A program made the position numbers and the translations under genes. This document shows positions 1 through 61,323 of a stretch of DNA of 64,000 nt, one piece after another (within the stretch, counting starts at the first letter, position 1; each line of letters begins with the position of its first letter). The notes beneath the pieces were generated by a model. That model searched no databases, was not told the DNA's origin, and saw nothing but the letters and a program-made list of their open reading frames with translations. The DNA lies in IMG/VR virus record IMGVR_UViG_3300014208_000026, positions 32,001 to 96,000 of that record; one strand, 5' to 3'. The DNA is from a virus. Its lineage: Duplodnaviria > Caudoviricetes.

Positions 1-68
1 TTGACACTCTCTCGGATAACGAGATATCTAAGGGGCGTGTTCGCTACGAGGTAGCTGAGCGGACAGGG

Positions 69-275
69 GTGACCTATGCTTACGTTCGACAGCTAGAGGA
101 CAAGATGCTCTCCGTAGTCCCCAAGATCATCGCCAACGATCCTCACCTCCAGAAGCTCATCAACAGAGTGCTCGACCGTTCTGAGATCGAAGCCATGACC
201 TCCGGCTACAAGACAGCCAAGAAAAGATCCTTGGCTTTCCAGCGGATCACTGCCTCCGATCCAGTTCCCTTCTAA
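69..275 (+). CDS. small hypothetical protein
   Basis: 68 aa ORF with GTG start and purine-rich upstream sequence; TTGACA at 1-6 may be its -35 box. Confidence 0.5.
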   Translation: MTYAYVRQLEDKMLSVVPKIIANDPHLQKLINRVLDRSEIEAMTSGYKTAKKRSLAFQRITASDPVPF

Positions 276-282
276 TTTCTTC

Positions 283-311
283 TTGACAGCATCCCAGGTT
301 CCCGCTATAAA
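283..311 (+). promoter_or_regulatory. sigma70-type promoter
   Basis: TTGACA (283-288), 17 nt spacer, TATAAA (306-311). Confidence 0.85.
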
Positions 312-316
312 GGGGC

Positions 317-830
317 TTGTGTCTATTTGTTCTTTGAGCGTGGTCCTCCTGAGCTGTTCTCCCCGAGGCTTACACGGGAGACTTGAGGAGGTCCAAGAGA
401 TTGGGACAGAAGCCGTTGCGACTCTCCTTTAACGAGGGGGAGGTTCGGACTGGGAACCTTGATGTAGGACCCAGTATGCTGAGGGATCGCTGTCCACGCT
501 CAAACAGTACCCATGATGGGGTACGGGTTCTTTGACATAAAAGGATTCCCCCGTAGCAAATCTCCCTAACCCAAAAGGTGGGAGGTGGCTCGGAGCCGAC
601 TAAGACGGATCCCCTGAGCAGAGATCCTCCGGCAGCCGAGTAAGTCCCGAGTGGTGAGACCTAAGAAAGCGTCCCTTACGTAAGTAGAGGACAGGTTGAA
701 GACCCACTAACCCCTGAGAACAGATCCTCTAGAACATAGGTTCAGGATCTCTCAGGATCCTAAGGCCCTAGGATCTTAGGTTCTTGAACCCTCAGATCGG
801 GATCTCAAAATTCAGAAGTGATCTAAGAGT
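317..830 (+). ncRNA. candidate large structured non-coding RNA (ends approximate)
   Basis: Follows a consensus promoter and has no + strand ORF of 60 aa or more. Perfect 11 bp long-range helix 333-343/494-504, many nested hairpins, possible pseudoknot 449-454/470-475, boxA-like TGTTCTTTGA at 328-337. Confidence 0.6.
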
Positions 831-910
831 CCGTGTTCGAGTCCTGATGCTGGTTCTAAGGATGCTGGTGCTGATGGTCTGAGTCCTGGTCTGAGTCCTG
901 GTGATGATGG
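723..910. repeat. GATC-dense and low-complexity repeat tract (resumes at 2515-2630)
   Basis: GATC at 723, 746, 756, 772, 795, 801, 820; degenerate GATGCTGG and CTGAGTCCTGGT repeats. Confidence 0.7.
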
Positions 911-1018
911 TCCTAAGGGTTCTCAACAGTCCCCATAGGTAGCCTATAATGTGCCCTGATTGGTAACATTTAACCCGGGTGAAAGAGTCAGCGTTCATTT
1001 CGGGTCTCCGAAGTGGAT

Positions 1019-1047
1019 TTGACTCCCTCCAATATTTCCCCTATACT
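1019..1047 (+). promoter_or_regulatory. sigma70-type promoter of tnpB
   Basis: TTGACT, 17 nt, TATACT. Confidence 0.75.
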
Positions 1048-1071
1048 TCCCCTTAGTGGAGGCTCGATTTC

Positions 1072-2496
1072 ATGAAGTCCAAGAAGTCGCGATTCTTTTT
1101 TCTCCACCCAGACACCAACCCCATTAAGCGCTCAAAGGTCGAGGATCTCTACGCCGAGTTTCTATCCTATCGTACCCTCTGTGTCAAGACCCTTCTGGGG
1201 AATCGAAAGCTCAGCCTCTCCCGTAAGGAGATGAAAGCCTTTTTCCCGGGATCTGACGTCCTCACTTCCCAAATCCAAAAGAACGCTCAGGATGAAGCAG
1301 TGGTTACCGTCAGGTCTTGGGCTGCTGCAACTTACTCTCGTAAGATCAAAAAACAGATAACTTTGTTAAAGAAAGAGGGAGCAATAACAGAGGATGAGGC
1401 TCGACAACTTTACGCCGTGGGTAAGTACTCCGTAAGTAAACCCTCAGCTACTATCTCTCAAGAAGCAATCGACTTTTACTGGGATCTGTTGGATACCTTT
1501 GGCGGTAAGAAACCCGAGGTCCGTTATGGATCCCCCATGTACCTCACGGAGATGACCTCTAAACTAACGGATCCAGAAGAGACGATTATAGCTGACTATT
1601 GGTTGAAAATTTCTACTCTTGAACCAAGAAAAACAGTTTGGTTACCGTTAGTCGGGAATCCTTACGTAGCTCATGCCGATGAAGTCTCCAAGACGATTCA
1701 GTGTCAACCGACAACGAACGGTCGTTGGCGGTTCATGGTCGTAGAGAAAAAGGAATACGAGATCCCTGAGGTTGATCTGGATGCTCCTAGGTTGGGTTTA
1801 GACGTAGGATTAAACGTCCTGGCAGCTACCTCTTCGGGAGACTTGTACGGGGAGGACGTTAAGCCCAAATTCGACAAGAAATGGGAACAAATCAAGAAAC
1901 TTAGGGCTAACCGCCAGAGGCAAGGGCTCAAAGAAGATTCTCTCAGGTTGAAAACCCTGGAGTCGAAGCTGTCGGGGTTAGTTAAAACAGAGACCGGACG
2001 AATAGTTAACCTGCTTGTAGCTAAGCATCCTGGAACGGTCTTTGTCCTTGAGGACCTCGACCTTTCCGGATGCGCAGGCCAGAAACGGTTTGCTTACAGA
2101 GCACTCCAGCACAGCCTTGAGACCAAGGCTCCCTGTATAAAGATCAATCCTGCGTATACTTCGCAGGAATGTCCCTCCTGCGGCTATATCTCGCGTAAGA
2201 ATCGCACGGGGACGAAGTTCCATTGTCGCTTTTGCGGACGTGTCGCGCATGCTGACTGGGTCGGCTCAACTGGTATCCTGAGACGTTCTCAAGATGTCGA
2301 GATCAGTTTAGCCATGGATCCAGAAAGCGTGAAAGAGGTGCTGATCGGTAGATTCCTTCTTGCACAAAGAGGGATTCACCTATCGGGATTTCTTCGGAAC
2401 GAAAAGGAGCCCCCACCGTTGGGCCCCGGGCTTACTACCGAGGGATCTGGGTTAAGCCTAGACGTCGGCACAGCTCTAGAGTCAAGACCTATTTAA
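1072..2496 (+). CDS. tnpB: TnpB / Cas12f-like RNA-guided nuclease
   Basis: RuvC-I LGLDVG, RuvC-II VLEDL, zinc ribbon TSQECPSCG...CRFCG, RuvC-III HAD. Confidence 0.9.
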   Translation: MKSKKSRFFFLHPDTNPIKRSKVEDLYAEFLSYRTLCVKTLLGNRKLSLSRKEMKAFFPGSDVLTSQIQKNAQDEAVVTVRSWAAATYSRKIKKQITLLKKEGAITEDEARQLYAVGKYSVSKPSATISQEAIDFYWDLLDTFGGKKPEVRYGSPMYLTEMTSKLTDPEETIIADYWLKISTLEPRKTVWLPLVGNPYVAHADEVSKTIQCQPTTNGRWRFMVVEKKEYEIPEVDLDAPRLGLDVGLNVLAATSSGDLYGEDVKPKFDKKWEQIKKLRANRQRQGLKEDSLRLKTLESKLSGLVKTETGRIVNLLVAKHPGTVFVLEDLDLSGCAGQKRFAYRALQHSLETKAPCIKINPAYTSQECPSCGYISRKNRTGTKFHCRFCGRVAHADWVGSTGILRRSQDVEISLAMDPESVKEVLIGRFLLAQRGIHLSGFLRNEKEPPPLGPGLTTEGSGLSLDVGTALESRPI

Positions 2497-2729
2497 GTAG
2501 GTCTTGATGAACGGTGCTGATGTTGAGAGTGCTGGTTCAAGTTCAAGTCCTGATGCTAGTGCTGGTCCTGTAGGTAGTAAAGAAGCTGTACTGGTTCCTT
2601 CGGATGGTGAGTGCTGGATCCTGGTTCTTTGAAATCCTGGTGAACGGATCCTCTCAAAGAGACAGATCCGTTCCTGAGCCTATAGAACTCCCTCTGGTAG
2701 AGGGACGAACAGAAAAGAAGCTCAGGAAC

Positions 2730-3068
2730 ATGAACCTCTCAGAGAATCTAGCTCTCGCCTGTTTGTACGTGATGGGGGGTAGAGCCCAACCGTTCTTCCC
2801 AGGGACAGATCGCTGTGCCCCCTCCTTCATCGTAAGGGTGTTACTAACCCTTCCCGCTCCCTATAGGGAATCGGATCGGTGTAGGTTCCCCATGGATATC
2901 AAATGGGATCTATGGGAACTGATGGTGCCTCTGATAGAATCTGAAACATACAGTCCTAAGCTTCCTGTGAACCAACACCTGTTAAGAGCCACGGATTTCG
3001 ATCAGCTAGTCCTCTTGATGACGGGTAGAGTCGAGGAGGCTCTAAGAGAAGCTGGAAGGATCCCATAA
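2730..3068 (+). CDS. hypothetical protein (ORF track start 2604; ATG 2730 preferred)
   Basis: Open frame abutting the next gene. Confidence 0.5.
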   Translation: MNLSENLALACLYVMGGRAQPFFPGTDRCAPSFIVRVLLTLPAPYRESDRCRFPMDIKWDLWELMVPLIESETYSPKLPVNQHLLRATDFDQLVLLMTGRVEEALREAGRIP

Positions 3069-3073
3069 AGAAA

Positions 3074-3280
3074 ATGGCTGAACAAAGAAAGCTTACCATT
3101 GCCAAGGACAAAACTCCCGTTTGGATCCACTGTCGAGCTAGGAAGACCTGCCCAGGGAACATGGCGGAACCGGTGTTCGACCAAGAGTCCCCGGGAGGGG
3201 GTGGGATCGTGAAGCGATACCGCTGTCTCACCTGTAAAGGGACTTTCCACATTACTGTAGGGTCCCAGTTCAAGGGCTGA
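3074..3280 (+). CDS. small zinc-ribbon protein
   Basis: HC...C and CxxC motifs in 68 aa. Confidence 0.65.
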   Translation: MAEQRKLTIAKDKTPVWIHCRARKTCPGNMAEPVFDQESPGGGGIVKRYRCLTCKGTFHITVGSQFKG

Positions 3281-5003: not shown

Positions 5004-5140
5004 GATTCTGGAGGTAAAAAGCCTTGTTTTGCCAGGGCTCGTAGAGGCCGGGGCGGTACAGTAATAAGGCTATCGCGCTCGCTTAGAGGGTCGGATGTTT
5101 GTGGCCGACCCTCCCTGTCATAACCGCTTCGGAGCAAAGC

Positions 5141-8100
5141 ATGTTTGTCGGCGCCCAGCAGGATCGAAAAGTTCGCATCTTCTCCCTCAAGCCCGAGTTT
5201 GTTGCTCAGTACAAGGACAAGCAGCCGCCTTGGGGTCCTTTGGGATATTTCGTGTATAAGAGGACCTACAGTAGGCCTTTGTTTGCTAATAATCCTGATG
5301 GACCAACAGAAGAGTGGTATCAGACCTGTCAGAGAGTTGTAGAGGGTGTTTACAACATTCAGAAGCATCACTGTAGGGGCATGGGTCTGGAGTGGAAAGA
5401 AGAGAAGGCTCAGATTTCAGCCAAAGAGATGTATGACCGTATGTTCAACTTCAAGTTCCTTCCCCCTGGACGCGGTTTGTGGTCCATGGGTACGGATGCA
5501 GTAATGATCAAGGGCGGGGCAATTTTGAACAATTGTTTCGCAGGAGAGACAGAGATCCTCACTGCCGATGGGGTGAAGAAGATCAGAGACGTCGCTGGAA
5601 CCATACAGACTCTTCTGGTCCATGACGGGACGTGGGCCGAAGCCCCTGTCCGGTCGTTCGGTATTCAGAAGCTGGTCAAACTTACCGTGGAGAGAGGGGG
5701 GGCCTATAAGACTGTTTTCTGTACTGCGAATCATCGGTGGTTAGTGAGTGTTGATCCCACCTACCCAATCTGCAACATTAGTCATTATGGGTCGCCTGTG
5801 GTACTGAATGGTATTGAGGCACGAGAGGTTGAGACCACGCTGCTTGCCGAAGGGGTTCCTCTTTACAGCGTACTCCCCGGAGTTGGGGTAGGGCCTGACG
5901 TTGAACCTTGGTTCGTAGTCAGTGTAAAGGAAACGGGTCGCGAAGAAGAAGTGTTCTGCGCTACCGTCCCTCAGTACGGAAACTTCACTCTGGCAGATGG
6001 TTTACTCACGGGAAATTGCGGGTTCACGTCGACCGAAAACATCAAAGAAGACTTTGCCGATCCTTTCACGTTTCTGATGGATATGTCGATGCTGGGCGTC
6101 GGAGTCGGCGGGGATATGCTCGGGGCAGGGAAGGTGAAGATCCTTACCCCCAGGATCAAGGACGAGACTTTCGTAGTGGAGGACAGTCGCGAAGGCTGGG
6201 TCGAGCTGGTCGGGACGGTGTTGAACAGCTTTGTCCACAAGGGCTACATGCCTGCCAACATCGACTACACGAAGGTTCGTCCTCGTGGGGCGCCGCTCAA
6301 GGGCTTCGGTGGAACCGCTTCGGGTCCGGGGCCTTTGATGGATCTCATTGACAGTATTAAGAAGGTTCTCACGCCTCCGGAAGGTGTGGAGTCCTATTGG
6401 ATCACCTCACGACACATTTCAGATATCATCAACATGATTGGGCGGTGTGTTGTAGCTGGCGGGATCCGCAGAAGTTCCACTATTTTGTTCGGGGATCCTG
6501 CCGACGAAGAGTTCCAGAATCTCAAGGACCCGACTGAGCGCGATGCTCTTCGACGGGAATTGACCCTTCTGCGTGAGACGGAAGCAAGCAAAGTCCCCTC
6601 CGTGCGAAGTCTGCGGGACTCTATCGAGACGCTGGCGGCACAAGAGCGGAACGCTTGGTTCCTGCCGCTTCAGGAAGAAGTCCAGAAGTGCATGGAGGGA
6701 GGGAACCATACAAAGGCAACCGAACTCCTGAAGAAGAAGCAGCCGGAAGAGACTGTTCGGCTGCGGGAGTTGCGGGCGGAACTGAAGCGTCTCGTGAAGG
6801 AAGAATCGGATAAATCAACTTCCGTTCAGGAACTTGAGGGGAGGTTGTACTCTCTCCCCCTGGAGGCGTGGCGTTGGTCGAGTAACAACAGCCTCGTGGC
6901 TACTGTGGGAATGGACTACACGAAGGCGGCAGAGTCCATCGCTAAGAACGGAGAGCCTGGACTGTTCTGGTTGGACAACGCTCGGGCTTTCTCTCGCATG
7001 GGTCGAAAGCCCGACTGGAAGGACAAGCGGGCCAAGGGTTGCAATCCCTGTTTTGCTGGGGACACCTTGATTGCTGTCGCGGATGGTCGAGGGGCTGTTC
7101 CTATCAAGGATTTGGCAGAGACTGGAAACGACGTTCCGGTCTATGCTATGAATCCTGAGACTGGAGAGGTGGCTGTTCAGCGTGCGTGGCGTCCCAGGAA
7201 GACTCGTTCGGGTGCAGAACTTCTGGAGATCCAGTTCGAGGGAGGCGGATCTCTGCGGGTTACCCCCGATCACGGGATGCTCACTATGGACGGGAGGAAG
7301 ATTCCGGCCAGTGAGATCCGGCAGGGGTTCATGGTTCCGTATTCCCAGGAAGACCTTCGTGTAGAGCACCCTTTTGAGACTTTCGAGTGCGACAGTGTTG
7401 TCAAGCCCTGTGAAGTGTGCGGGAGAGCCCTGGAGGTTCCTTTTGGCCGTCGTGAGGAGTCTTGTTGTTCCCCTGAGTGTTTCGACAAGCTGGCCGCTCG
7501 GGAACAGCAGGGGAAGGTGTGGGGTGAGGGGGTAGAGGCACGCAGGGTGTCCGCTGTAGTGAAAGTCCGAGAGTTGGAGGATGTGTACAATCTGACTGTC
7601 AAAGACTTTCATACTGTGGGCATTGCTCTAGACAACAATGTTAGTTGTTGTTCTATTGTTTTTACGGAAAATTGCAGCGAGCAAACGCTGAACTCGATGG
7701 AATTATGTACCCTTGTTGAGACTTTCCCTGCTAACCATGATTCTTTTGATGACTTTGCCAAGACATTGAAGTTCGCATATCTCTATGCAAAGACCGTAAC
7801 TCTTGTCATGACACACAATCAAAAGACGAACAATGTTATGGCTCACAACCGTCGTATTGGTTGTTCGATGTCTGGCATTGTGCAGGCCGTGCATAAGCAT
7901 GGGCGTTCGGAGTTTAGAAATTGGTGTAAGGAAGGCTATAAGGAACTGTTGAGGTGGGACGAAACATATAGTGAATGGCTTGGAATACCTAAAAGCATAA
8001 AGATAACGTCTGTCAAACCCTCGGGCACAGTTTCGCTGCTCTGCAATGCTACTCCTGGTATCCATTTCCCCCACAGTCAGTTCTACATTCGTAATATCCG

Positions 8101-9970
8101 TGTACAGAATACCTCTCCCCTGGTTCAACTGTACAGGGATGCGGGCTATCCTGTCGAGAAGGACCGCGGGGCTCCGGACACCAGCGTGATTTCTTTCCCT
8201 GTGGAGGAGCCGAACTTCTGGAAGTCCAAGTCCGACGTTTCTATGTGGGAGCAACTGGCTCTGGTTGAGGACCTTCAGTGGTATTGGGCCGATAATCAGG
8301 TGTCCTGTCTGACAGGGAGCACCCTGGTTAGAACTAGCCAGGGTTGGCTCAGGATGTCCGAGTTGTCTAATTCTATGTTTGGGGAGGACCGCCCAGTTGG
8401 GGCTTATCCTTACTCGGGACCCTTGCAAGCACTCAACGCCGACAATGAGTGGTCTCCGATTTCCGCTCTGGTAGTGAATGAGCCTAAGCCTTTGGTGCGG
8501 GTGGTATGTGAAGGGGGGCAGATTCTTACCGGTACTCCTGAGCACCAGCTTCGGGTGATCGGTCCGGATTTGGAATTTCAGTGGAAGCCTTTGAGTGAGA
8601 TAGGGGTTAACGACTATCTCGTAGAGGTGATCAACCATAAGGGTTACAACTCCACGAACCAGATCGTTCAGCGTAGGTTAGAGAAGTTCCAGTTCTCCGG
8701 AAGGTCGGATGCAGACCGTAATTTCAAGGCTCCTACGTGCATGACAAGAGAATTGGGTGAGCTTTTGGGCTTCATAGTCTCTGATGGGCATATTCACCTA
8801 AGCACAGACCAGGGATTCGGTCTGACTCAGAGATCTTCTGCGACTGCTGTTGTAGACAGGTTTCACGAAATAGTTCCTGAGTTGTTCGGTTCAAAGGTCT
8901 GTACAATTGTTAATGCCCGATTTAACAAGGAGGACCCCGTTCTGTCTCTCGCTGTTAATTCTAAAAAGGGAGCTTTGTGGTTAAGGTGGTTGGGTGTATA
9001 CGACGAGAAAAAGCTGAAACGAGTGCCTTGGCCTGTTATGATGGCTGGAGAAGGGGTTATTAAGGCTTTTTTGCGCGGGGTTACCCTTGACGGGCATTTC
9101 TCTAATACTAATGGGCGTATTTACGTCATGACAACTAACTCTTATAAATTAGCGGAAGAATTGTGTGTGTTACTTAAGCATGTAGGTTTTCAGCCAGCTC
9201 TTTTACCAGCACAGGGCACTGATCACACCATGAAGTCTCCTTATAACGGTAAGGTTTACAACTGTGACCCCACTTGGACTGTCTCTCTGTCTACTGCACA
9301 GTCTGCCCGTTTCATGAGAATGATCGGTTTCGCTGAGGATCACAAGAATGAGGCTTATGCGGAACGCGGGGATAAGCATCGGCACAATCTGTTTGGTGGA
9401 GTTCCCGATTTTGGTCTCAGGGACCGGATGCGGACTCTTGAACATCGGTGTCAGAGTCGTTTCTTGAATGACCATTGGCACGGGGCTTCTTGTCATCCTG
9501 ATAAGGAAGTTTCGAGGGAAACCCTTCTTCAAATGAGGGATATGGGAGAAAGCATTCCGGAGAAACTGCTTCAGGACGATTTTGTGTTCCGTCGTGTTCT
9601 TGCGGTGGAGCCTGCAGAACCCGAAGTGACGTATGATCTCACTGTGACAAATGGGCACAGCTATATTGCGAATGGTTTTGCCTCGCACAACTGCACTGTA
9701 ACTTTCAAACCCGAGGAAGCCAAGGACATCAAGTCGGCTCTCGAAACCTACGAAACCCGTTTGAAGTCCGTGTCTTTCCTGCCTCTCAGGGACCACGGCT
9801 ACGACCAAGCCCCCTACATCGAGATCGACGAGGCTACCTACCGCCAGATGGTGGCTGCAATCAGCCCTGTCGACCTCTCTGTACTTGGCCATGACCAGGA
9901 GGATAAGGGGTGTGACGGGGAAGCTTGCCTCATCAAAGCCCAGGCTATGGCCGCTGAGCAGTCTGCTTAG
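5141..9970 (+). CDS. nrdJ: class II (AdoCbl-dependent) monomeric ribonucleotide reductase with three inteins
   Basis: FLPPGRGLW, LNNC, RWSSNNS, spliced NPCSE..ELC, VKPSGT, C-terminal CDGEAC; ATG 5141 follows a GGAG. Confidence 0.95.
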   Translation: MFVGAQQDRKVRIFSLKPEFVAQYKDKQPPWGPLGYFVYKRTYSRPLFANNPDGPTEEWYQTCQRVVEGVYNIQKHHCRGMGLEWKEEKAQISAKEMYDRMFNFKFLPPGRGLWSMGTDAVMIKGGAILNNCFAGETEILTADGVKKIRDVAGTIQTLLVHDGTWAEAPVRSFGIQKLVKLTVERGGAYKTVFCTANHRWLVSVDPTYPICNISHYGSPVVLNGIEAREVETTLLAEGVPLYSVLPGVGVGPDVEPWFVVSVKETGREEEVFCATVPQYGNFTLADGLLTGNCGFTSTENIKEDFADPFTFLMDMSMLGVGVGGDMLGAGKVKILTPRIKDETFVVEDSREGWVELVGTVLNSFVHKGYMPANIDYTKVRPRGAPLKGFGGTASGPGPLMDLIDSIKKVLTPPEGVESYWITSRHISDIINMIGRCVVAGGIRRSSTILFGDPADEEFQNLKDPTERDALRRELTLLRETEASKVPSVRSLRDSIETLAAQERNAWFLPLQEEVQKCMEGGNHTKATELLKKKQPEETVRLRELRAELKRLVKEESDKSTSVQELEGRLYSLPLEAWRWSSNNSLVATVGMDYTKAAESIAKNGEPGLFWLDNARAFSRMGRKPDWKDKRAKGCNPCFAGDTLIAVADGRGAVPIKDLAETGNDVPVYAMNPETGEVAVQRAWRPRKTRSGAELLEIQFEGGGSLRVTPDHGMLTMDGRKIPASEIRQGFMVPYSQEDLRVEHPFETFECDSVVKPCEVCGRALEVPFGRREESCCSPECFDKLAAREQQGKVWGEGVEARRVSAVVKVRELEDVYNLTVKDFHTVGIALDNNVSCCSIVFTENCSEQTLNSMELCTLVETFPANHDSFDDFAKTLKFAYLYAKTVTLVMTHNQKTNNVMAHNRRIGCSMSGIVQAVHKHGRSEFRNWCKEGYKELLRWDETYSEWLGIPKSIKITSVKPSGTVSLLCNATPGIHFPHSQFYIRNIRVQNTSPLVQLYRDAGYPVEKDRGAPDTSVISFPVEEPNFWKSKSDVSMWEQLALVEDLQWYWADNQVSCLTGSTLVRTSQGWLRMSELSNSMFGEDRPVGAYPYSGPLQALNADNEWSPISALVVNEPKPLVRVVCEGGQILTGTPEHQLRVIGPDLEFQWKPLSEIGVNDYLVEVINHKGYNSTNQIVQRRLEKFQFSGRSDADRNFKAPTCMTRELGELLGFIVSDGHIHLSTDQGFGLTQRSSATAVVDRFHEIVPELFGSKVCTIVNARFNKEDPVLSLAVNSKKGALWLRWLGVYDEKKLKRVPWPVMMAGEGVIKAFLRGVTLDGHFSNTNGRIYVMTTNSYKLAEELCVLLKHVGFQPALLPAQGTDHTMKSPYNGKVYNCDPTWTVSLSTAQSARFMRMIGFAEDHKNEAYAERGDKHRHNLFGGVPDFGLRDRMRTLEHRCQSRFLNDHWHGASCHPDKEVSRETLLQMRDMGESIPEKLLQDDFVFRRVLAVEPAEPEVTYDLTVTNGHSYIANGFASHNCTVTFKPEEAKDIKSALETYETRLKSVSFLPLRDHGYDQAPYIEIDEATYRQMVAAISPVDLSVLGHDQEDKGCDGEACLIKAQAMAAEQSA
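5534..6016 (+). mobile_element. mini-intein 1 in NrdJ (161 aa)
   Basis: Starts CFAGETEIL, has TANHRW block B, ends TGN before Cys. Confidence 0.9.
7049..7672 (+). mobile_element. mini-intein 2 in NrdJ (208 aa) with Cys-rich insert
   Basis: Starts CFAGDTLI, has TPDH block B, ends TEN before Cys, inserted inside NP-C. Confidence 0.9.
8306..9691 (+). mobile_element. intein 3 in NrdJ with LAGLIDADG homing endonuclease (462 aa)
   Basis: Starts CLTGSTLV, has LLGFIVSDG and FLRGVTLDG, ends SHN before Cys. Confidence 0.92.
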
Positions 9971-60030: not shown

Positions 60031-61323
60031 TTACGGGTAGCATAGACTTTTATCCAAGCTACACATTTCTTGGGTATCAGGGACTACATGCTCCTGACCG
60101 ATCTCCGCCCAATAAAATCCACGTCTATTGTCCAAAGATCGCCAGCCTTCCCCCAGAGGGGTTAGGTTCAGGCTAATATTCCGGGAGGCGTTCAAGTCAG
60201 CATTTGCGGCGAAGCCGCATTTCTTGCACTTGAACATCTCTCCTTTTCTATTAGCCTTCTGGACCCATCCACAACACGAACATCTCTGGCTCGTAAAAGC
60301 TGGGGGGACTTTAATGATCTGGACACCAGTGTCTTCACAAAGTCTACCCAGCTTACCAAAGATCTCCGTATATGTCCAACTCCTCATGGACTTGGACGTT
60401 CTCACGCCTAATCTAAGATTCTTGATCGCCTCGATCTTAAGTGTTTTTACTCCCCGTAGGTTTAGCTGGTTCAACGACCAGTTGATGTAGTTGGTCCTGT
60501 GGGCTTGAGCCCTCGCGAAAGCTTTAGACCCCTTCTTCTTATGGTTCATCTCAGCGATGATCTTGGGCAGGGTCCAACCATGCACGTCTTCCTGGGACTG
60601 AACCCCGTCGCTCGAAGAGAACACTTTCTTATAACCTATATCCACCCCAACTGTTGTTCCCTGAGATACGGGTTCGGGTTTGGGAATAGAAAATACACAC
60701 GTTACAGAGTTTGAGTTTAGTCTAAGCCCAGGTCTGATCTCACCTCTGGACTTCATCTCGTTAAAGTGCTTAGTTAGTTTGATCGGGAACACGATCTTTA
60801 GGGAGTGGTCCCAACCAGGAGGAGTACCTAAACAGGTTAGATTTACATAAGCATCGAACGAGGTCTCGGACTCCCAGTCGATCTTGACGAATCTTGAGTC
60901 CAGTTGGGGATTCATGTTCTTGAGATCCGGCTTGGACATTTTGGTCTTATCTATGACCTTCTTGAGCTTCTGGGCTTGTTTGGTCTTACCCTCAGCTAAA
61001 AGTTTAGCATAGACGAACTCACGCCTTTTCTGCTTTTCACGAGTTCCTCTCACGATCCCAGAAGCCTGTTTAGCTGCGGCTTGGACAGCACGAGCCGAGA
61101 GCCAAGTCTGGGTCGAGACTTGATCTGTAAAGTTTTTCGAAAACAACCTCTGGATCTCAGCGTCCTCTCCGAGAGTCCAGAGAGGGTCGACGAACAGAGC
61201 GGTTACTCGCCAGTACTCTTCAGTAAAGAGATCGATGAGATCTCGTTTTCCTGGGTTGGTGAATTTGAGGGACAGTTTAGAGGACCGGATCAGGGAGTAT
61301 TTGTCTTTCTTGGATCGAGCCAT
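60031..61323 (-). CDS. tnpB: TnpB RNA-guided nuclease (solo element)
   Basis: VGVDIG, IEAIKNL, TSQRCSCCG...CKKCG, NADLNAS. Confidence 0.9.
   Translation of the reverse strand: MARSKKDKYSLIRSSKLSLKFTNPGKRDLIDLFTEEYWRVTALFVDPLWTLGEDAEIQRLFSKNFTDQVSTQTWLSARAVQAAAKQASGIVRGTREKQKRREFVYAKLLAEGKTKQAQKLKKVIDKTKMSKPDLKNMNPQLDSRFVKIDWESETSFDAYVNLTCLGTPPGWDHSLKIVFPIKLTKHFNEMKSRGEIRPGLRLNSNSVTCVFSIPKPEPVSQGTTVGVDIGYKKVFSSSDGVQSQEDVHGWTLPKIIAEMNHKKKGSKAFARAQAHRTNYINWSLNQLNLRGVKTLKIEAIKNLRLGVRTSKSMRSWTYTEIFGKLGRLCEDTGVQIIKVPPAFTSQRCSCCGWVQKANRKGEMFKCKKCGFAANADLNASRNISLNLTPLGEGWRSLDNRRGFYWAEIGQEHVVPDTQEMCSLDKSLCYP

Follow-up and report, generated by a model that had tools for sequence, protein, structure and literature searches.

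The window, as we call the whole stretch of 64,000 nucleotides analyzed here, corresponds to bases 32001 to 96000 of a 257-kb IMG/VR virus record. Since CheckV rates these 257 kb as about half complete, the virus can be regarded as a huge phage. Nearly all genes in the window lie on the plus strand, and the orientation of genes in this genome switches approximately 1 kb upstream of the element under study. The element is preceded by a 364-aa gene with its stop codon at 275, whose product resembles the helix-turn-helix of sigma region 4 at its C terminus; no Pfam match was obtained for this sigma-like gene. A TnpB-like gene lies downstream, and beyond it follow a small gene, two clamp-loader-like genes, an intein-bearing class II RNR, a RecD2-type helicase, and a DNA methylase. 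The individual features of the locus are as follows.

283 to 311, plus strand: sigma70-type promoter, read from the sequence, with TTGACA as the -35 (283 to 288), a 17-nt spacer, and TATAAA as the -10 (306 to 311)
317 to 845, plus strand: putative structured RNA, probably a divergent member of the family described below, assigned from the absence of ORFs, synteny, covariation in the family, and window-specific covariation against the related contig L004
329 to 337, plus strand: boxA-like copy 1 (GTTCTTTGA), from a motif count, overlapping the 5' arm of the 11-bp helix
333 to 504, plus strand: 5' domain closed by a perfect 11-bp helix (333 to 343 with 494 to 504), from the fold and a repeat search
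345 to 391, plus strand: two-tier hairpin (345 to 350 with 386 to 391, and 358 to 363 with 376 to 381), 12 of 12 pairs being kept in L004
392 to 405, plus strand: hairpin with GNRA loop GAGA and stem 392 to 396 with 401 to 405, corresponding to the GNRA hairpin found family-wide
406 to 493, plus strand: helix ACAG/CTGT (406 to 409 with 490 to 493) around GAAGCCGTTG (409 to 418); the homologous helix covaries in relatives
507 to 535, plus strand: hairpin (507 to 524) followed by boxA-like copy 2 (527 to 535), at a position conserved across the family
552 to 872, strand not applicable: GATC cluster, the densest in the 257-kb contig at 9 sites per 250 nt
562 to 640, plus strand: hairpin (562 to 584) followed by a three-tier hairpin (589 to 593 with 636 to 640, 595 to 597 with 631 to 633, and 607 to 611 with 623 to 627), from the fold
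827 to 844, plus strand: degenerate counterpart of the family 3' hairpin (GAGTCCGTGTTCGAGTCC), the hairpin not being formed
846 to 935, plus strand: left part of a period-3 (GNT) tract, broken by the TnpB element; period-3 z = 12.9
1072 to 2496, plus strand: TnpB-like ORF of 474 aa (Pfam Cas12f1-like_TNB and OrfB_IS605), an insertion that lies outside the RNA family
2508 to 2729, plus strand: right part of the period-3 tract with boxA-like copy 3 (2624 to 2632) and GGATC-containing repeats, from periodicity and repeats
2730 to 3068: small conserved gene, following the right part of the period-3 tract

The consensus promoter claimed by the initial annotation is present at 283 to 311. A promoter scanner missed it for the sole reason that position 6 of its -10 is A. 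Judged from the sequence, transcription is likely to start near 317 to 319. The region was also said to be free of ORFs, and the interval from 276 to 1075 is indeed closed in all six frames. Stop-codon recoding was considered as an explanation and rejected: TAA, TAG, and TGA each occur in every plus-strand frame of this interval, and recoding therefore gives no ORF.

Several of the predicted structures were recovered from the window. The perfect 11-bp inverted repeat that closes the 5' domain was confirmed, and by our estimate, chance would yield approximately 0.02 such repeats in a region as large as this. The hairpins described as nested inside this helix are seen in the minimum-free-energy fold. 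ACTGGG at 449 to 454 and CCCAGT at 470 to 475, which had been proposed as a pseudoknot, do pair, but as an ordinary nested stem within enclosing helices. The hairpin and T-rich run at 507 to 537 resemble a weak terminator, which would yield a 200-nt RNA instead. In comparison with dinucleotide shuffles, the region folds better, but only modestly and alike on both strands (z = -2.3 for the plus and -2.2 for the minus strand). Because this folding excess is modest and equal on both strands, an RNA cannot be established by thermodynamics alone.

Relatives of the locus were also sought. No match to positions 1 to 3000 of the window was found by blastn among GenBank phages, and no relatives were found among viral contigs with TnpB or the sigma-like protein as the query. 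Homologues of the sigma-like protein occur on the 1.3-kb contig L004 (54% identical) and, more distantly, on the 9.4-kb contig L005. On L005, the sigma-like gene is followed by 742 nt without ORFs, a small gene, two clamp-loader genes, and RNR; TnpB is missing, and protein identities to the window range from 28 to 36%. Alignment of clamp-loader proteins added four further huge-phage contigs, and motif pattern scans added a 402-kb genome with terminal repeats along with many metagenome contigs (at least 120 loci). After removal of chance and unrelated matches, at least 17 distinct relatives were left, all of them huge-phage contigs. The family was defined from L005, L008, L009, L021, L032, L043, L092, L101, L122, L128, L131, and others. 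A 485-kb genome, LR745208, carries homologues of the flanking genes, but with other ORFs between them; it gave no match to the covariance model described below and was left out of the skew test.

The relatives share one arrangement, in which the sigma-like gene is followed by a TTGACA promoter, the structured element, a period-3 tract with iterons, a small gene, and the clamp-loader genes. By tblastn, the order of genes around the element was the same in all 14 lineages with enough flanking sequence, at protein identities of 24 to 42%. In most relatives, a TTGAC(A) -35 with a TAnnnT-like -10 lies just past the stop codon of the sigma-like gene, and a block common to the relatives, CTTGACAG, is located directly past that stop codon. 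A hairpin with a GNRA loop follows. The sequence of its stem differs by lineage and always pairs. Immediately 3' of it stands (G)AAGCCGTTGAG, replaced by GAAGGGAACCAC in one subgroup, and a GCTCTTTGA-like block is likewise common to the relatives. At the 3' side, the family has a strongly conserved hairpin, GG-GA-GUCC-GNA-GGAC-GA-CC, from which L005 deviates; in most relatives, it lies 375 to 425 nt from the -35 and is preceded by a (T)AGGATC or TAGATC motif.

In a plain MAFFT alignment of 11 relatives, not fitted to structure, RNAalifold gave 39 pairs, 28 of which showed at least one compensatory double change. The core, which is the basis of covariance model R1, comprises 128 model positions with four helices and 21 pairs. 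Pairing was found in 94.2% of the core cells, compared with 67.5% in column shuffles, and double changes occurred in 17 of the 21 pairs. The covariation score of the core was 0.767, compared with 0.239 in shuffles, and was attained by none of 500 shuffles. Sliding the partners by 1 to 3 columns, as a control, resulted in pairing of 31 to 50%. The helix of 4 to 5 bp next to the GNRA hairpin was 100% paired in the relatives, with double changes in all four pairs. The GNRA hairpin itself, located just upstream of the conserved motif, has a fully covarying stem and is present in 17 of 17 full-length members (16 relatives and the window). Collecting homologs and testing their covariation had been proposed as a check of the initial annotation, and RNAalifold, the shuffles, and the slid controls all show strong covariation in the relatives.

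Three features favor a sense-strand RNA over double-stranded DNA: GNRA loops are obtained on reading the sense strand and not its complement, tandem G.A pairs occur in the 3' hairpin of the family, and 7 of 11 sequences have G.U at one of the family pairs. Taken together, the comparison makes it highly likely that this is a real, conserved family of structured RNA maintained by selection. It appears to be a new, promoter-driven family of approximately 400 to 550 nt, maintained throughout a clade of huge phages in front of the DNA replication genes; L021 is a compact member of approximately 370 nt. No description of this huge-phage RNA was found in the literature.

The window itself is a distant member. 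R1 gave no match in the window at default filters; with filters off, the best overlap was at 390 to 451 (5.6 bits, E = 0.15), which was not the top match, and nhmmer with a profile of the family did not find the window. The family 3' hairpin does not form, its place at 827 to 844 being taken by degenerate sequence. Since R1 does not score the window, its membership rests on synteny, motifs, and the link through L004. With respect to synteny, the sigma-like gene lies upstream and the small and clamp-loader genes downstream on the same strand, and order and strand fit the family once the TnpB insertion is discounted. A promoter of the TTGACA/TAnnnT type is located directly past the upstream stop codon. 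The GNRA hairpin is followed by a 4-bp helix around GAAGCCGTTG, in keeping with the family's helix of 4 to 5 bp enclosing (G)AAGCCGUUG. The loop of this helix (406 to 409 with 490 to 493) holds an insert of approximately 70 nt with two hairpins, one of which is the ACTGGG/CCCAGT stem; this insert is seen in the window only.

L004 connects the window with the other relatives. It is 63% identical to the window over 136 aligned columns (z = 5.1). In the hairpin at 345 to 391, no paired column differs without a compensating change, five of the 12 pairs being changed on both sides. The sequence of L004 stops short of 494 to 504, the 3' arm of the 11-bp helix. At the position of the GNRA hairpin, this truncated contig reads CGGG-GTAA-CCCG. 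R1 matches L004 at E ~1e-3 although the contig stops after 24 model positions, and it also matches the distant subgroup L011/L055/L102. When the clamp-loader protein was compared with 5.8 billion proteins, the best match was 43% identical, and the covariation evidence for window-specific helices thus covers the hairpin at 345 to 391 alone. The 3' half of the window copy (540 to 845) aligns poorly with the relatives, its resemblance consisting of position and short motifs. The stretch from 562 to 640 was matched to the relatives' CUCGGAG.C and following hairpin by eye, by position and motif; an alignment that placed 556 to 660 on the family hairpins was unreliable and was discarded. We consider 317 to 845 to be probably a divergent, insertion-bearing family member, the link via L004 being indirect but solid. 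Conservation and covariation in the relatives indicate that the region is beyond chance, and the clustering of GTTCTTTGA described below adds to this. The promoter-driven, ORF-free, structured phage element is very probably an RNA.

The initial annotation had taken the element for a large phage noncoding RNA or ribozyme with a core like that of group I introns. The structured, noncoding phage element stands, and the group I ribozyme does not. The motifs that gave rise to this reading, namely, GACTAAGACGG at 598 to 608, GGATC at 607 to 611, GATCC at 623 to 627, and TAAGTCC at 641 to 647, are all present, and the resemblance of their spacing is the single point in its favor. The stretch assigned to P7-P3-P8 lines up by eye with the three-tier hairpin at 589 to 640, which is specific to the family. 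No match to RF00028 or to any other ribozyme or intron was obtained at an E value of 10 or less in positions 1 to 3200 of the window, where nothing relevant was found, and none to RF00028 or another family at 1 or less in five relatives. The whole window gave no match to Rfam 15 at gathering thresholds, and ARAGORN found no tRNA or tmRNA in it. What turned up in the Rfam searches of the window, the five relatives, and unrelated loci with the 3' hairpin motif was limited to microRNA and CRISPR-repeat matches at chance level. No gene is split by the element. In the window and in all relatives, it lies between two complete, separate genes with normal ends and starts, and there are therefore no exons to join. 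A group I intron or group-I-like ribozyme is accordingly close to refuted by the absent RF00028 match, the intact flanking genes, and the family hairpin set, and we give it hardly any credence.

The adjacent TnpB-like gene suggests another source for a structured RNA, namely, that the element supplies TnpB with a guide or scaffold or forms a terminal structure of the TnpB insertion. In IS200/IS605 elements, the omega RNA of TnpB comes from the 3' end of tnpB, whereas the element lies 750 nt upstream of the gene. Its relatives carry the RNA without TnpB: a TnpB-sized ORF or long insert at this place was found in none of the five fully read loci (L005, L008, L009, L011, and L021). No close TnpB relatives were found alongside. 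In the window, the TnpB gene with its ends splits the period-3 tract, and similar GNT-rich sequence stands on both sides, with period-3 z values of 12.9 and 8.2 on the two flanks. Removal of the TnpB element had been said to leave approximately 800 nt of noncoding locus; we obtained approximately 870 nt, compared with 720 to 920 nt in L005, L008, and L009. Since the TnpB-free locus fits relatives that lack the insert, the RNA is independent of TnpB. The guide RNA reading is ruled out by these relatives for all practical purposes, and the chance that it holds is minute.

Past the 3' hairpin, the relatives continue into the period-3 tract, with z above 5 in 9 of 13, and then into lineage-specific iterons (AAAGTTTC, GAGAATC, or GTCACTA, in up to 11 copies), after which the replication genes begin. 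We considered whether the period-3 tract holds a small conserved ORF and rejected this, several relatives being closed in all frames; no peptide was conserved except for the translation of the hairpin and the beginning of the following gene. No U tract follows the 3' hairpin, and read-through is therefore expected.

This setting raises the question of whether the locus is a phage replication origin. Its structure would then act in a primer or R-loop transcript, as in ColE1 RNA II or T4/T7-like origins, or as single-stranded DNA hairpins, which primase or an initiator would read in unwound DNA; the period-3 tract would be the site of a filament with 3-nt steps, and the iterons would be initiator sites. 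Besides the succession of period-3 tracts, iterons, and replication genes past the element, base composition in this genome points in the same direction. The cumulative GC skew of the whole 257-kb contig has its minimum at window position 1288, with a sign change at the element, and the skew of two relatives, G003 and G001, steps up at the element. The minimum lies approximately 18.5 kb upstream in G001, the complete 402-kb genome, and in G002, however, and G002 shows no skew step at the element. In this genome, the skew switch coincides with the switch in gene orientation approximately 1 kb upstream, and the skew may thus reflect transcription. The GATC density of the contig has its single maximum at 552 to 872 (the mean per 250 nt is 1.25, with a standard deviation of 1.16), whereas the maxima of G001, G002, and G004 are far from the element and G003 has one of two joint maxima approximately 2 kb away.

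The sequence of the element was also considered with regard to origin function. GNA triloops with tandem G.A pairs are unusually stable in DNA, and the 3' hairpin of the family carries such a triloop. Against this, the family pair that occurs as G.U in 7 of 11 sequences suits RNA better than DNA. Neither DnaA-box-like sites nor an AT-rich unwinding element occur in the window locus, and the tract past the hairpin is not consistently G-rich, as an R-loop would favor. On balance, we regard an origin as the main identity of the locus as quite improbable.

The best functional clue to the RNA is, in our view, a BoxA-like site, which is predicted to load NusB/S10 on a long untranslated transcript. 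The boxA-like element noticed initially, TGTTCTTTGA at 328 to 337, is present; the copy that is conserved in the family, however, is that at 527 to 535. GTTCTTTGA occurs seven times in the 257 kb (both strands), and three of these copies lie in the locus, at 329, 527, and 2624, all in sense orientation. The boxA-like form of the window is GUUCUUUGA, with its three copies on the sense strand. In the relatives, the motif at the position of copy 2 is CGCTCTTTGA, TGCTCTTTGA, or TGTTCTTTGA, in an unpaired linker between two covarying helices. Among the relatives, L092, L005, L101/L128, and the L010/L011/L055/L102 subgroup lack the motif or have it in altered form.

The family form of this linker motif, GCUCUUUG, equals the NusB/NusE BoxA core as determined by experiment. 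The NusB-NusE heterodimer recognizes 8 nt; the BoxA of A. aeolicus is GGCUCCUUGGCA, from which that of E. coli rrn differs at positions 1, 6, and 9, and exchange of one purine for the other at position 9 should reportedly be tolerated (PMC3177189). From these sequences, GCUCUUUG can be described as the E. coli core carrying the purine of A. aeolicus: it agrees with E. coli BoxA at positions 2 to 8 and with A. aeolicus BoxA at position 9, and the consensus of the phage's own host may differ. In the window, GUUCUUUG at 527 to 534 has one mismatch (C to U) to the BoxA octamer GCUCUUUA/G, and two more copies are present.

Based on these features, we propose tentatively that the RNA is an early transcript that leads into the replication module, is untranslated and equipped with boxA, and may be linked to origin function; we hold this to be quite possible while short of probable. 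A host-type RNA polymerase would start at the conserved TTGACA/TAnnnT promoter and synthesize the multihelix RNA. The unpaired BoxA-like element (GCUCUUUG in the family and GUUCUUUGA at 527 to 535, with two further copies, in the window) would recruit factors of the NusB/S10 type, and because of this recruitment, the elongation complex might survive the long untranslated run through the remaining RNA, the period-3 tract, and the lineage-specific iterons. The polymerase would then reach the replication module, which comprises clamp-loader, RNR, and helicase genes, and the RNA would serve an early replication operon as a Rho-resistant antitermination leader of the rrn or nut kind. The same RNA may also activate an adjacent origin. 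Transcription, use of BoxA, read-through, and a role at an origin are inferred in this scheme. A leader role alone leaves the conservation of approximately 400 nt of intricate structure unexplained.

An alternative is a stand-alone, trans-acting large noncoding RNA similar to GOLLD, ROOL, or OLE. It would have an early promoter to itself, and the 3' hairpin would be the site of its maturation or protection. Its function would be unrelated to read-through, for example, that of a scaffold or a new kind of ribozyme. In its size, its numerous covarying helices, and its GNRA loops, the element is more typical of large functional RNAs than of simple leaders, and the conserved terminal hairpin at 375 to 425 nt from the -35 in most relatives would provide a discrete 3' boundary. 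BoxA could simply ensure that an untranslated RNA is made in full, which is its role with rRNA. On the other hand, there is no intrinsic terminator past the 3' hairpin, the RNA has no Rfam relative, and the window has a degenerate 3' hairpin though the locus is otherwise kept. The strict place directly upstream of one operon suggests action in cis. A free RNA of this kind therefore seems rather unlikely to us. To the same extent, we would not expect, while giving it some weight, that the RNA represents a new large functional class that is integral to the replication apparatus of huge phages rather than a passive leader; it might, for instance, have a fold that nucleates or primes replication at the period-3 tract and iterons, or be a new ribozyme or scaffold.

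Huge phages, with genomes of 200 to 700 kb, are known almost only from metagenomes, and to our knowledge their replication origins, early transcription, and noncoding RNAs are essentially uncharted. The family described here offers a putative early RNA of such phages, approximately 0.4 to 0.5 kb in size, that combines strong covariation, a conserved host-type promoter, a BoxA-like site, and a fixed place before the replication module in lineages with proteins only 25 to 40% identical. If it is an antitermination leader, huge phages would borrow the host's rRNA-type antitermination machinery for their early replication genes; if it acts at an origin or as a free RNA, it would constitute a new functional RNA class. 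In either case, the predicted promoter, RNA ends, BoxA site, and iterons provide a concrete handle, and the family alignment is ready for Rfam.

In relation to known systems, the element resembles group I introns (RF00028) in size and in the superficial likeness of three short motifs only, and it differs from them in that it matches no model, has no exons beside it, and shows no P3-P9 core that could be identified. With GOLLD (RF01998), ROOL (RF03087), and OLE, it shares the size class, covarying helices, GNRA loops, and occurrence in phages or prophages. Neither the window nor five relatives gave a match to their covariance models, however, and the phage family is fixed at the head of one operon and so far restricted to one clade of huge phages. 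ColE1 RNA II and the T4/T7 origin transcripts are similar in that a promoter drives a structured noncoding RNA of approximately 0.5 kb into a repeat-rich region by replication genes, which in this genome lies at the GC-skew minimum. They differ in that the phage RNA is unrelated to them by sequence or Rfam and lacks both a consistent G-rich hybrid stretch and an AT-rich unwinding element; in the relatives, the skew minima do not fall at the element. Compared with the rrn leader and lambda nut, the family element is far larger (400 to 550 nt, with many conserved helices), no equivalents of boxB and boxC and no N-like protein were identified for it, and the BoxA-like motif is missing in part of the family. 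What it has in common with both is a single-stranded BoxA-type octamer (GCUCUUUG in the family and GUUCUUUG in the window) that is flanked by hairpins and placed near the start of what would be a long, untranslated transcript from a sigma70 promoter that must escape Rho.

Downstream of the hairpin at the 3' end of the structured RNA (GG-GA-GUCC-GNA-GGAC-GA-CC, hereafter the 3' hairpin), the window and its relatives have a tract of non-coding DNA in which 3-nt periodicity is very strong.

Window 846-935 and 2508-2630: period-3 tract, non-coding
L005 (relative contig) 1456-1530: period-3 tract, non-coding
L092, L008 and other relatives: period-3 tract, non-coding

In one phase of the tract G is abundant and T scarce; in another, T is abundant and G scarce. 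Its register relative to the 3' hairpin is unchanged across seven relatives, and a search for a conserved open reading frame within the tract, in the window and the relatives, found none. The tract may serve as the binding site of a protein filament with a 3-nt step. In the window it is interrupted by the first of two TnpB-like genes, which is flanked by copies of GGTGCTGATG at 867 and 2513.

Window 1072-2496: TnpB-like gene, 474 aa, Cas12f1-like TNB domain
Window 60031-61323 (-): TnpB-like gene, 430 aa, Cas12f1-like TNB domain

No TnpA was found in the window alongside these two genes. The class II ribonucleotide reductase gene of the window (5099-9970, 1,623 aa) is split by intein and Hint domains; the reductase of L005 likewise bears an intein, one that includes a LAGLIDADG domain.

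Relatives carry lineage-specific iteron arrays in the stretch that separates the RNA from the first replication gene, with units of AAAGTTTC (7 copies), GAGAATC (5 to 8 copies), or GTCACTA/AATTGTC (9 to 11 copies).

L005 1578-1690: iteron array
L021 2700-2830 (-): iteron array
L008 3850-4150: iteron array
L122: iteron array

The GGATC-containing repeats at 2616-2670 may be the window's counterpart of these arrays. Within the RNA, most family members retain a motif that includes a GATC site, either (T)AGGATC or TAGATC, at a distance of 20 to 60 nt on the 5' side of the 3' hairpin.

Window 768-781: (T)AGGATC/TAGATC motif
L009, L021, L043, L055, L102, L127 and L011, equivalent place: (T)AGGATC/TAGATC motif

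The GATC cluster of the window looks like an expansion of this motif. In two relative genomes, G001 (402,383 bp, with terminal repeats) and G002, the cumulative GC-skew minimum lies approximately 18.3 to 18.8 kb upstream of the RNA in its sense orientation, a consistent offset that may mark the true origin of that subgroup.

The 3' hairpin itself extends far beyond the huge-phage RNA family. Among the matches listed in a metagenome scan it was frequent, with nonfamily loci comprising L044, L048, L113, L121, L125, L096, L035, L045, L046, and L105. At metagenome loci it forms tandem arrays with a spacing of 25 to 27 nt, is contained in GTCATCCTGAG-type repeats, and caps longer hairpins adjoining transposase genes, which read like IS3-family members from their sequence. 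It was also found 3' of an L28-like (rpmB-type) gene, so judged by its translation. An Rfam search of unrelated loci with the motif returned no covering family. With its GNA triloop and tandem G.A pairs, the hairpin looks like an unnamed, widespread structural module.
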